A DNA stretch of 64,000 bases, from positions 119,426-183,425 of the forward strand of contig JAHFNC010000002.1 of assembly GCA_023267535.1 (NCBI GenBank). Reading direction: 5' to 3'. Made by a program: the position numbers and the translations under genes. The notes beneath the pieces are model-generated. The model saw only the letters and a list, made by a program, of their open reading frames with translations. It did no database searches and was not told the DNA's origin. Positions 60,963 to 61,428 of this stretch are shown piece after piece. This DNA is from a bacterium (lineage in GTDB: Bacteria; Patescibacteriota; Minisyncoccia; Phycocordibacterales; UBA5272). How positions within the stretch are numbered: the stretch's first letter is position 1; each line of letters opens with the position of its first letter.

Positions 60963-61307
60963 ATGAAAGATCAAGAATTTATTGAATACATAGTGAAAGC
61001 ATTAGTAGATAATCCAGATCAAGTTAAGGTTGATCGAAGAGTTGATGAGATGGGAGTCCTAATTACTCTTGATGTTGCTCCAGCTGATATGGGAAAGGTA
61101 ATCGGTCGCGATGGAGCTACAGCTAAAGCGTTACGCACGTTACTCCGTGTCGTTGGTATGAAGAATAACGCTCGTGTTAATTTGAAAATAAATGAACCAA
61201 ATGGTGGAACTCATGATAACGGTGCTACAAACGGAAAATTTTCACATGGGGGAAGTTATGATATGTCGGATGTAGACGCAGTTATGAACGACCTAAAAGG
61301 CATCTAA
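60963..61307 (+). CDS. KH-domain RNA-binding protein (YlqC-like)
   Basis: KH GxxG VIGRDGATAKALRTLL; sits in the rpsP-KH-trmD context. Confidence 0.8.
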   Translation: MKDQEFIEYIVKALVDNPDQVKVDRRVDEMGVLITLDVAPADMGKVIGRDGATAKALRTLLRVVGMKNNARVNLKINEPNGGTHDNGATNGKFSHGGSYDMSDVDAVMNDLKGI

Positions 61308-61428
61308 ACCAAAAATTTAATTCATCTACTTTGTCGAAATATGGATTTTGTTAGTCGTCGTAGTTTTCTACGCCTTCTTCCAAAATCCCTTTTTCTTCGC
61401 GTATCTAAATTAAATTTTTGGTTTAGAT
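61302..61428. repeat. Intergenic structured repeat family 1, copy E (its 5' arm overlaps the KH gene stop codon)
   Basis: Perfect 21 bp outer arms atctaaaccaaaaatttaatt / aattaaatttttggtttagat; inner stem ggattttg / caaaatcc; hairpin cgtag-tttt-ctacg; core TCATCTACTTTGTCG ... CGCGTATCTA. Confidence 0.7.

Follow-up and report, generated by a model that had tools for sequence, protein, structure and literature searches.

The closest described counterparts of the element reported here come from several systems. REP and REPIN sequences, which are mobilized by RAYT (TnpA-REP), are short, high-copy extragenic palindromes forming hairpins of ~100 nt, often located just 3' of genes; they are non-autonomous, pass through long vertical inheritance and evolve as sequence populations, and an ssDNA hairpin is thought to be the substrate. 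Hairpin MITEs such as Correia/NEMIS of Neisseria, the enterobacterial ERIC/IRU and the pneumococcal RUP are imperfect palindromes of 100–160 bp found in many copies, which insert in intergenic regions, are co-transcribed, fold in the mRNA and have orientation-dependent effects. It is well established that the attC sites of integrons, of similar size, lie immediately after the stop codon, co-oriented with the gene, that their structure is conserved over their sequence and that they fold from the bottom strand. The ssDNA transposons IS200/IS605 and the PATE lack both conserved terminal inverted repeats and target duplication; they depend on ssDNA folded in a strand-specific way and insert in fixed orientation beside a short target word at one end only. 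Features of each of these systems have a parallel in the element described here.

We have analyzed a window of 64,000 nt, the whole stretch of DNA considered, in which an initial annotation had listed five copies of an intergenic element. The five copies are indeed there, all in the same orientation, and the covariance model (CM) that was built matched exactly these five loci of the window (83–103 bits, E 1e-22 to 1e-28), the next-best match being an unrelated palindrome with 25 bits. Copies and flanking genes are as follows:

2551..2672, + strand, copy 1: directly 3' of the rpoD stop codon TAG (2548-2550), CM 91.7 bits
9310..9426, + strand, copy 2: 4 nt past the ahpC stop codon (9303-9305), CM 103.3 bits
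11806..11930, + strand, copy 3: overlaps the parB/noc stop codon TAA (11809-11811), CM 83 bits
25506..25630, + strand, copy 4: between infB and rbfA, CM 92.6 bits
25648-27195, minus strand: infB, flanking copy 4
25129-25503, minus strand: rbfA, flanking copy 4
61302..61428, + strand, copy 5, the focal copy: CM match 61301-61428, 88.9 bits, wholly after khpA save for the codons held by its left arm (see below)

The 5' motif of the element was found 8 times in the window at up to two mismatches, against 0.65 expected, each copy folded far better than its shuffles (z from -5.8 to -13), and the distance from TCATCT to CGYATCT was constant (78–79 nt). That four of the copies sit at or over a stop codon was also correct: from the end of the stop codon to the start of the stem there are 0 nt in rpoD, whose TAG the stem is able to take in, 4 in ahpC, -6 in parB/noc and -6 in khpA. 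The one without a stop codon is copy 4, between the minus-strand infB and rbfA; its better-folding strand is the transcribed one and it is among the ~25% of the family not found against an ORF end. The host genes are in conserved synteny (dnaG-rpoD, rpsP-khpA-trmD, infB-rbfA).

The family is large and widespread. About 110 copies were found at a CM E<1e-4, i.e., 91 (the five of the window included) plus 19 (including the duplicate in L120), those outside the window being counted in 8-kb samples, often with 2–3 copies per 8 kb. They belong to Patescibacteria, Deltaproteobacteria, Nitrospirae, Clostridia, Negativicutes, Gamma- and Alphaproteobacteria and Acidobacteria. Near-identical copies are numerous in some genomes, for instance Acidaminococcus fermentans and Candidatus Limiplasma. 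The E. coli and plasmid collections searched gave no match, and a phage origin was discarded, with a real copy in only 1 of 46 viral pattern matches. The element belongs to no family of Rfam 15 (hammerhead, twister, pistol, hatchet, HDV-like, 6S, SRP and HEARO included): the window at the gathering threshold gave only 8 tRNAs, the focal copy at E<=10 gave chance matches to miRNA and sRNA hairpins of 20 bits at most, and four loci from other phyla gave nothing. To our knowledge, none of the likenesses to hammerhead, K-turn, loop E, boxA or SRP RNA agrees with the conserved positions. When the core words were sought literally in the texts of papers, only primers and other chance matches appeared; the literature on MITEs, REPINs and structured RNA of Patescibacteria does not describe the element, and neither the abstracts nor the section lists of recent genome-language-model preprints mention it. 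This hairpin repeat family is, apparently, undescribed so far.

Each copy is made of a universal core of ~85 nt clasped by arms of ~20 bp, one with an A-tract and the other with a T-tract, for a total of ~125–145 bp. On the gene-sense strand the core reads 5'-CATCTRCTTTGT, variable helices, a GTAC-type apical hairpin, variable helices again and CGYATCT-3'. The parts of copy 5 and its surroundings are these:

60963-61307, + strand: khpA, a KH-domain gene, stop codon TAA at 61305-61307
61302..61322, + strand: left (gene-side) arm ATCTAAACCAAAAATTTAATT, holding the khpA TAA and the last sense codon, paired with 61408-61428 over 21 bp
61322..61336, + strand: 5' junction motif TCATCTACTTTGTCG, kept throughout the family
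61343..61388, + strand: inner variable helices GGATTTTG / CAAAATCC, surrounding the central hairpin
61359-61372, + strand: central hairpin CGTAG-TTTT-CTACG (helix 5), paired in 95.5% of cells across the family, with compensatory changes
61396..61407, + strand: 3' junction motif TTCGCGTATCTA, a GCGAA-type variant of CCTCGYATCTA
61408..61428, + strand: right arm AATTAAATTTTTGGTTTAGAT, exact complement of the left arm, stop codon included
61475..61499, + strand: GC-rich canonical terminator aaaaa-tcgcc-acaa-ggcga-ttttt, downstream of copy 5 and separate from the element

Separate terminators are found in a like arrangement at 2719-2749 and about 9449-9478. The minimum free energy of copy 5 was -42.2 for the + strand and -49.9 for the - strand. 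A locus identical to it was found in L120, and the orthologous copy of L083 also sits 3' of khpA, with a right arm altered in step with the altered last codons of the gene. Throughout the family, the GCGAA-type 3' variant goes with GAC, and not AAC, on the opposite strand.

The motifs had been described as more uniform than they are. The 5' stretch TCATCTRCTTTGT is common to all five copies, with the exception that copy 1 ends in TTA and not in TYG. GTCRTCG, also given as common to all, is exact in three only (GTCACTG in copy 1, GTCAAAG in copy 3), and CCTCGYATCTA is exact in two and has one mismatch in two more, copy 5 carrying the variant listed above. An ATCTA at both junctions is true of 3/5 copies, and a common helix architecture applies with the proviso that the default fold of copy 3 deviates. 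The description of the outer stems as completely different was mistaken, since the ~12 nt beside the core keep an A-tract/T-tract pattern (AAAAATTNANTT ... AANTNAATTTTT), retained in the arms of every lineage, and only the distal 5–9 bp of the window arms are unique to each copy. The family sample was collected with a pattern that fixes the junction motifs, and the matches found only by the CM show that motif variants exist, so the invariance of these motifs is partly due to ascertainment.

The covariation proposed for the five copies holds when more of them are aligned. In 66 diverse copies, whose inner helices MAFFT did not bring into register, 87.8% of the paired cells were complementary versus 62.2% after shuffling (a value reached in 0 of 500 shuffles) and 31–40% in slid controls, and there were 528 cells with double changes versus 185 in the control. 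Double changes affected 24 of the 29 pairs, with a covariation score of 0.661 (0.197 shuffled, 0.12–0.17 slid). Besides, in 66/66 copies the R at position 7 of the 5' motif and the Y of the 3' motif change together (columns 27/108), as G-C in 46 and A-U in 20. Because covariation was significant in this larger sample, its disappearance with more copies, which had been named as a reason to abandon the claim, did not occur. With compensatory changes above controls, the element is a structured and evolutionarily conserved single-stranded nucleic acid.

The structure belongs to the strand complementary to the mRNA, which folds better in 65 of the 66 copies (mean -61.9 vs -50.4 kcal/mol). The arms of this strand have 101 G.U against 26 A.C, with the wobbles at fixed proximal positions, and its loops are rich in purines. 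Only here can the junction be read as U.G, A-U, tandem G.A/A.G, U-A, R-Y and C-G; on the sense strand it consists of C.A, U.C and C.U mismatches. We infer that mutational bias is not the cause of the asymmetry, as a C-to-T bias linked to transcription or replication would put the wobbles on the opposite strand.

The location with respect to the genes is polar. In 40 of 86 copies an ORF of at least 90 aa stops at a distance of 10–25 nt from the core at the CATCT end (mode 18 nt), whereas at the AGAT end an ORF end falls within that range in a single one. The gene adjoining the CATCT end is co-oriented, the stop codon lies inside the helix or at its base in most copies, and the upstream genes are diverse, full-length housekeeping genes; about 25% of the copies have the opposite orientation or are away from ORF ends. 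Orientation follows the gene and not the chromosome, with mixed orientations within 8 kb in L016, L059 and L062. Placement oriented by replication was discarded for this reason: copies less than 8 kb apart point in opposite directions, each along its own gene.

The elements are not intrinsic (Rho-independent) terminators, i.e., a G+C-rich stem with a 3–8 nt loop followed by a U-tract, and their T-tract lies within the arm, paired to the A-tract. A terminator scan of 2400-12100 did not call them and listed within them just the small inner hairpin 9362-9376, while the separate hairpin at 2719-2749 was called. In the window, a canonical GC-rich terminator of its own lies downstream of three of four copies, and the parB/noc copy has no other terminator before the next gene. 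Insertion into the loop of a pre-existing terminator was suggested by Clostridia copies with T-runs after the distal arms. As a general rule this was rejected, since such a hairpin is missing from the rpoD and cbiQ sites that are empty and since active lineages keep the arms alike from copy to copy.

Filled and empty versions of the same site were found. The 3' end of cbiQ is empty in L175 and filled exactly after an unchanged TAG in L173 and L171. Tex ends in ...LKK* or ...LKGV* where relatives have the site empty and in ...ADA* where it is filled, so that the ORF enters the element by 3 codons. Between DUF4143 and GGT, L171 has a spacer of 19 nt and L053 one of 416 nt, the latter containing a full copy plus two fragments of the right half. 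The break point of the fragments is the apical hairpin, and a left-half fragment was also detected. A single inner-helix subfamily appears at unrelated loci of different genomes, after parB (copy 3 of the window), mreB (L059) and rpsP (L034). In Acidaminococcus relatives, the filled and empty sites, the apical-loop fragments and the subfamilies common to different loci show mobility. The copies in gamma MAGs have conserved 17-bp terminal inverted repeats (GGAAGCTCTGCAAAAGT), and 6/7 of them carry TA or YTAR at either side. Such repeats are conserved in gamma MAGs (both ends) and in Acidaminococcus, the window arms sharing only the A/T-tract pattern.

The direct target-site duplication of DDE-type MITEs was not seen: family-wide, direct repeats were not above the shuffled control and symmetric TA flanks were not enriched, and the flanks of the window copies are inverted, not direct. 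No transposase was detected in 119 loci of 8 kb nor among the window ORFs scanned (30 of ~60), which were housekeeping or without family match and had no mobile-element or RT domains. The all-against-all BLAST of flanking ORFs recovered ABC ATPases, response regulators and spurious ORFs lying across the element but nothing else, and a search for split "autonomous" copies, with an ORF between the left and right motifs, found none. The absence of a conserved neighbour gene fits a non-autonomous element. That neither a transposase, an RT or another partner nor a general target-site duplication was identified also counts against mobility.

None of the window copies is a recent identical insertion, the other circumstance that would have spoken for an ordinary MITE. 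These copies are old, have been passed on vertically (orthologues sit 3' of rpoD and khpA) and are probably immobile descendants. At the rpoD site there is a homologous copy in L124, a truncated remnant in L122 and an empty site in L121. In the rpoD orthologous pair the element has ~84% nucleotide identity, versus 52% at four-fold sites, and copies are kept after rpoD and khpA across genera. This slow evolution and cross-genus retention suggest a constraint or benefit at the level of the host. Both, together with a transcribed strand that is not the better-folding one, sit uneasily with a mobile element.

Our preferred reading, held with about as much doubt as confidence, is that the five elements are pan-bacterial hairpin repeats, most likely a non-autonomous mobile element of the MITE/REPIN kind that targets gene ends. 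They would propagate through a folded single-stranded intermediate, the strand complementary to the mRNA, and land with the CATCT end on or immediately past a stop codon, co-oriented with the gene. Once inserted, a copy would be co-transcribed as 3'UTR and inherited vertically for long. Compensatory change, or correction templated by the hairpin, would maintain its hairpin and lengthen it as far as the coding sequence, until the copy is lost by apical-loop breakage or deletion. The data show the family, its covarying structure, the asymmetry of the strands, the polar contact with stop codons, the filled and empty sites, the fragments and the subfamilies. We infer that the structure is needed for copying, that the intermediate is ssDNA or cDNA, and the target rule itself; the element may also have a role for the host in the 3'UTR. 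Of the two options that the initial annotation had left side by side, the mobile element is favored by insertion polymorphism, truncated copies, shared subfamilies and high copy number in many phyla. The structured RNA is disfavored, as there is no match to an RNA or ribozyme family and the strand certainly transcribed, the mRNA 3'UTR, folds worse. The suggestion of inverted flanks generated from the target was right in that the distal arms pair with the last codons and the stop and co-vary between orthologues; hairpin-templated correction or extension after insertion fits this at least as well as generation during insertion.

A rather unlikely alternative is that the element acts in cis as a sense-strand 3'UTR RNA that protects the 3' end of the mRNA, aids termination via arms with an A-tract and a U-tract or links what becomes of the mRNA to the end of translation, having spread once and being now selected by the host. 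The sense strand is certainly transcribed, and such a role would agree with the stop codon inside or at the base of most helices, with a right arm that co-varies with the last khpA codons between orthologues, with copies kept after rpoD and khpA across genera and evolving more slowly than four-fold sites, with the tracts present in the arms of every lineage and with the parB/noc copy, the only terminator candidate before the next gene. However, it is this strand that folds worse in 65/66 copies and has the mismatched junction, and the 12-nt sequence conservation across phyla would be left without a reason. Three of the four window copies have their own GC-rich terminator downstream, the terminator scan did not call the elements, the ~25% of copies opposite in orientation or off ORF ends do not fit, and the copy was lost or never present in the related L121 and L122. 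The choice of strand would be accounted for if the 3'UTR transcript were copied by an RT, sometimes into the last codons upstream, and the complement-strand DNA hairpin inserted at the end of a different gene. The shared orientation with the upstream gene would follow too, and there are fragments retaining the right (RNA 3') half, a left extension in Acidaminococcus that resembles the last codons of a former host gene, stop included (CTAACGCATAA = ..N A *), and one copy bearing 18 nt of the cbiQ 3' end. Hairpins of DNA made by RT have precedents in retrons and UG27 systems (bioRxiv 10.64898/2026.09.22.753630). We nevertheless find this route doubtful: none of the loci examined showed an RT, signatures of poly-A or priming are absent, a single lineage shows flank carry-over, there is a left-half fragment as well and the fragility of hairpins explains apical-loop breakage equally well.

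The complement strand might instead be an independent sRNA or ribozyme, antisense to the 3' end of the neighbour gene. Its G.U wobbles, tandem G.A and purine-rich loops are hallmarks of functional RNAs, the core is conserved across phyla and promoter-like matches face one copy (11972-11943, minus strand). These matches, however, are barely above shuffles in AT-rich DNA (50 vs 36), copy 2 is only ~22 nt from a strong bidirectional terminator and thus has no room for a promoter, no upstream motif is conserved, Rfam and ribozyme matches are lacking even at E<=10 and the polar contact with stop codons would go unexplained, all of which makes this reading quite improbable. We give very little credit to an attC-like site, a folded bottom-strand DNA substrate of a site-specific recombinase marking gene ends as in integron cassettes, in spite of the location at or after the stop codon, the co-orientation, the bottom-strand structure, the motifs near the base of a variable hairpin and the size of 60–140 nt. 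The genes preceding the copies are not cassettes but core housekeeping genes whose synteny is conserved, there is an extra ~20-bp helix outside the conserved motifs, which are not RYYYAAC / GTTRRRY, no integrase is nearby in the loci examined and the copies are dispersed, not arrayed.

If the mobile reading is true, a hairpin repeat family is common to very distant bacteria and would make up roughly 1% of the DNA in genome-streamlined Patescibacteria. It would break with the rules of MITE and REP in three ways (conserved core with variable ends, stop contact of one polarity, structure selected on the strand that is not the transcribed sense) and would indicate a novel mobilizing activity or a novel use of 3'UTR hairpins. 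How a DNA element gets placed at translation stop sites is a directly testable question. A speculative and distinctly unlikely reading is a pan-bacterial mobile element that finds stop sites: it would ride 3'UTRs, be copied to a complement-strand DNA hairpin by RT or another single-strand route, sometimes carry the last codons and stop of its former host and re-insert at another stop, the core being the recognition or priming module of an enzyme. The covariance model could be used to annotate hundreds of unexplained intergenic hairpins in metagenome-assembled genomes, with the caution that covariation, however strong, is not by itself proof of an RNA gene.

Compared with the systems described at the beginning, the element departs from each in a different way. 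REPs are lineage-specific, whereas its core is common to many phyla; a REPIN consists of two inverted REPs and the element of a single nested hairpin with strict polar contact with stop codons. The foot tetranucleotide GTAG or CGTC that, with a RAYT gene, defines REP/REPIN is absent except by chance: its motif G-Y-AGATG gives GCAG in 46/66 copies and GTAG, in the Y=T variants, in 20/66, co-varying with the opposite strand, and CGTC occurs only in some Patescibacteria copies. No RAYT gene was seen in the 8-kb loci sampled. In hairpin MITEs it is the termini that are conserved and the interior that varies freely, the reverse of a universal internal core with lineage- or copy-specific termini, and this too weighs against a mobile element of DDE type. 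Neither a general target-site duplication nor a parent IS was found, and placement by the stop is polar (40 vs 1 of 86), although the gamma MAG copies are MITE-like in their conserved terminal inverted repeats and TA/YTAR flanks. IS200/IS605 and PATE have two separate subterminal hairpins and an orientation that follows replication, unlike the single nested hairpin following the gene found here, where the target-side strand is the worse-folding one and no TnpA was seen in the loci examined. Instead of the attC core sites R''/R' (RYYYAAC ... GTTRRRY) with an integrase and a cassette array, the element has junctions CATCTRCTTTGT / CGYATCT and an outer helix, dispersed after housekeeping genes. 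In its position at ORF stops, its co-orientation with the gene and its bottom-strand structure, the element is like attC.

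The five copies of the element, a hairpin repeat of ~125 nt whose ~85-nt core is clasped by arms of ~20 bp, were recovered at 2551-2672, 9310-9426, 11806-11930, 25506-25630 and 61302-61428 of the window, all in a single orientation, as the initial annotation had it. They align with a mean column identity of 69% and share the invariant blocks TCATCT.CTTTGT and CG.AT.T; the 5' block occurs eight times in the window at two mismatches or fewer, against 0.65 expected. A covariance model (CM) gives the five loci 83-103 bits and the rest of the window 25 bits at most, and each copy folds far better than its shuffles (z from -5.8 to -13). 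GTCRTCG, at first taken as common to all copies, is exact in three of the five but not in the other two, and the 3' block CCTCGYATCTA, described likewise, is exact in two and inexact in the rest. The outer stems, described as completely different, do have 5-9 distal bp unique to each copy, but next to the core they follow a common A-tract/T-tract pattern. At 63444-63458 a one-mismatch version of the 5' motif (TCATCTGCTTTGATG) lies within a minus-strand ORF (62942-63547); having neither partner motif nor fold, it was discarded as a chance match.

The window is bacterial chromosomal DNA of 35% G+C with divergent housekeeping genes (dnaG, rpoD, obg, gatB, miaA, ahpC, parB/noc, relA, topA, dprA, infB, rbfA, clpB, leuS, rpsP-khpA-trmD and eight tRNAs), and its nearest RpoD homologues come from MAGs of Paceibacteria, Parcubacteria and Nomurabacteria, which places the organism among the Patescibacteria (CPR). 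IF-2 (25648-27195) has just 515 aa, measured as a stop-to-start ORF, and many of the housekeeping proteins score under the NCBIfam cut-offs, both consistent with a streamlined CPR genome. Four copies do sit at or over stop codons, as had been noticed, namely those of rpoD, ahpC, parB/noc and khpA, starting 0-4 nt past the stop or 6 nt before its end, and a separate canonical GC-rich terminator is found 20-50 nt beyond three of these four. The fifth is located between infB and rbfA, both on the opposite strand.

On the complement strand, i.e., the one complementary to the mRNA of the upstream gene, the consensus consists of:

5' arm of ~20 nt with an A-tract
C/U-AGAU-R-CG-(AGG or CGAA)
variable helices
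apical hairpin, mostly CGUAC-loop-GUACG
variable helices
(A/G)ACAAAG-Y-AGAUG
3' arm with a U-tract

The junction pairs are U.G/C-G, A-U, tandem G.A/A.G, U-A, R-Y and C-G, and an asymmetric purine-rich loop holds an invariant G-C pair. The covariation of the stems proposed from the sequence alone was confirmed over 66 diverse copies, with paired cells reaching 87.8% versus 62.2% when shuffled (none of 500 shuffles reached the observed value) and 31-40% pairing with slid partners. Double changes affected 24 of the 29 pairs (528 double-change cells versus 185 in shuffles), and the junction R-Y pair held throughout, as G-C 46 times and as A-U 20 times. The inner helices differ in register and MAFFT failed to align them; they are present in every single-copy fold. 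Since the search pattern itself set the junction blocks, ascertainment accounts for part of their invariance, and variants such as AGAUGCAAGG, GAGAUUCGAGG and ...GAAGAUC appear among the CM-only matches. Among the 8-kb loci sampled from other genomes (L numbers), five that are Nitrospira-like (L002, L011, L031, L108, L112) carry the core at the tip of far longer arms, of at least 45 nt (e.g., cctgtccggcattg ... caatgccggacagg), making the repeated unit at least 175 nt in that lineage. Five delta MAGs (L028, L029, L045, L062, L097) have, 15-25 nt past the right arm, a recurrent GAGTTTTTCAGCAGCCTG-like motif. Being the left arm's reverse complement, this motif could offer that arm a perfect pairing partner besides the imperfect right arm; it may be left over from an earlier copy or form an alternative helix.

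The exact-pattern scan, with one genome per species, gave at least 119 loci, ~85 of them genuine by fold and CM, and the CM adds copies not matching the pattern, often two or three per 8 kb. Hosts include Patescibacteria, Deltaproteobacteria/Thermodesulfobacteriota, Nitrospirae, Acidobacteria, Clostridia (Christensenellales, Limiplasma), Negativicutes (Acidaminococcus, Sporomusa), Gamma- and Alphaproteobacteria, Rickettsiales, Bdellovibrionales and Treponema. In the viral collection one of 46 pattern matches was real. The E. coli genomes and plasmids searched gave no copies, no Rfam 15 family matched at whatever threshold, the literature collection searched, by literal sequence and by concept, yielded no description of the element, and the flanking ORFs of the sampled loci revealed no gene family associated with it.

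Distances to stop codons were counted for 86 distinct copies with sufficient flank, using ORFs of at least 90 aa. On the gene side of the core (its left end, CATCT) an ORF ended at 10-25 nt in 40 of the 86, with a mode of 18 nt, the arm length. At the opposite end (AGAT) this happened in one of 86, and the ORF ends present there were at least 32 nt off in 18 of 21 cases. All three stops are represented (TAA 34, TAG 16, TGA 13). The upstream genes are unrelated, full-length and housekeeping (GroEL, MreB, RNase J, Tex, GGT, FGGY kinase), and since the 8 kb of L016, of L059 and of L062 each contain copies facing both ways, it is the gene and not the chromosome that sets orientation. Stop-like triplets also precede many copies away from ORF ends, including the one starting at 25506, a weak test given that a 13-nt window has one ~46% of the time by chance.

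The complement strand was the better fold in 65 of 66 copies (mean -61.9 versus -50.4 kcal/mol; Wilcoxon p 2e-12), and all five window copies fold better on it. In a wobble-blind alignment, its arms showed 101 G.U against 26 A.C and 51 G.A against 19 C.U, the wobbles being concentrated at fixed junction-adjacent positions (alignment columns 17, 18, 20, 22), and its inner loops are strongly purine-rich. A transcription- or replication-linked C-to-T bias was rejected as the cause because, by our reasoning, it would place the wobbles on the opposite strand; the simplest reading is thus that selection acts on a complement-sense single strand in its folded state.

At the rpoD site, L124 (RpoD 84% identical) has a copy whose homology is clear, and L121 is empty. 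L122 (7434-7500) retains a degenerate piece of the copy, the left arm with CATCTGCT; unrelated sequence and the terminator come next, so that here the copy has been lost through internal deletion. The rpoD-linked copies of the window and L124 are ~84% identical, versus 52% at four-fold sites, and differ by a compensatory change in the arm. After khpA both the window and L083 carry a copy; the gene's two final codons are ggc atc in the former versus tct att in the latter, and the distal right arm of the copy is altered in step with them, matched indel included. Hairpin-templated (quasi-palindrome) correction yields coordinated changes of this kind, and either this or selection for pairing would fit. 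A perfect 29-bp palindrome at 62688-62748 (CCAACGGCTCCAAAAAATAAAACATCATT / AATGATGTTTTATTTTTTGGAGCCGTTGG), with CM scores of 25 bits on both strands and without the core, takes into its left arm the last ~12 nt of tRNA-Thr (62625-62700). Hairpins of this genome thus run into the 3' end of an upstream gene also where the element is absent, which suggests that its palindromes generally extend as far as functional sequence. Directly after tRNA-Leu(tag), a ~19-bp AT-rich hairpin with A-tract and T-tract (23001-23050; CM 16.7 bits) resembles the arms of the element.

Evidence that the element moves comes from Acidaminococcus and its relatives, where the 3' end of cbiQ is empty in L175 (TAG followed by gagctg...) and occupied in L173 and L171 exactly past the unchanged stop (TAG-CTAACGCATAACCC-arm-core). 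Tex ends in ...LKK or ...LKGV in empty relatives versus ...ADA in filled ones, where the frame extends three codons into the conserved left extension CT(A/G)ACGCATAA; the latter makes TAA available in two frames, and the choice differs among upstream genes. The DUF4143-GGT spacer has 19 nt in L171 versus 416 nt in L053; a complete copy and two fragments of the right half lie in the longer one. In L171, moreover, a left half that breaks off at the apical loop is succeeded by an 18-nt duplicate from the 3' end of cbiQ and then by a second complete copy. Both regions (L171, 1127-1500; L053, reverse complement, 5630-6045) are hot spots of nested and truncated copies: some halves break off precisely at the apical hairpin, and several fragments of the right half lie downstream of a complete copy. 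Near-identical copies were found inside Acidaminococcus, Limiplasma and one group of gamma MAGs. Those of Limiplasma are tandem with a period of 188 nt (three in Candidatus Limiplasma L042, 1619-2126, with a second GC-rich hairpin, gagccccggagcttatgctccggggttc, in the spacers), and those of the gamma MAGs end in conserved 17-bp inverted repeats with TA/YTAR flanks. Inner-helix sequences define subfamilies common to unrelated loci across genomes, one of them comprising the window copy after parB and the copies after mreB in L059 and after rpsP in L034.

The best-supported reading, with about an even chance in our view, is a mobile, non-autonomous hairpin element. It would depend for copying on a complement-sense single strand in folded form and would settle at the ends of genes with one polarity. 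The five window copies are old and were inherited vertically. Stop targeting could have a simple basis, with insertions taking place on the 3' side of a sense-strand word that resembles a stop and intragenic ones being purged. A function for the host in the 3'UTR would agree with the retention and slow evolution of the copies, but the asymmetry between strands and the presence of separate terminators weaken it, and we consider it unlikely. Mobility mediated by cDNA would account for which strand is structured, for the co-orientation and for the gene tails carried along, and seems to us rather improbable; that the complement strand acts as an sRNA or ribozyme we find very improbable.

Closest to the element in working are REP/REPIN and hairpin MITEs, although the element is without the GTAG tag that defines REP/REPIN and without the general TIR plus TSD that define hairpin MITEs. 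With integron attC sites it has a positional logic in common, but neither their R''/R' motifs nor, in the loci sampled, an integrase, and an attC-like recombination site is hardly credible. We rate the element among the structured interspersed palindromic repeats, where it is unusual for a core conserved across phyla, for its one-polarity contact with stop codons and for a structure selected on the antisense strand.
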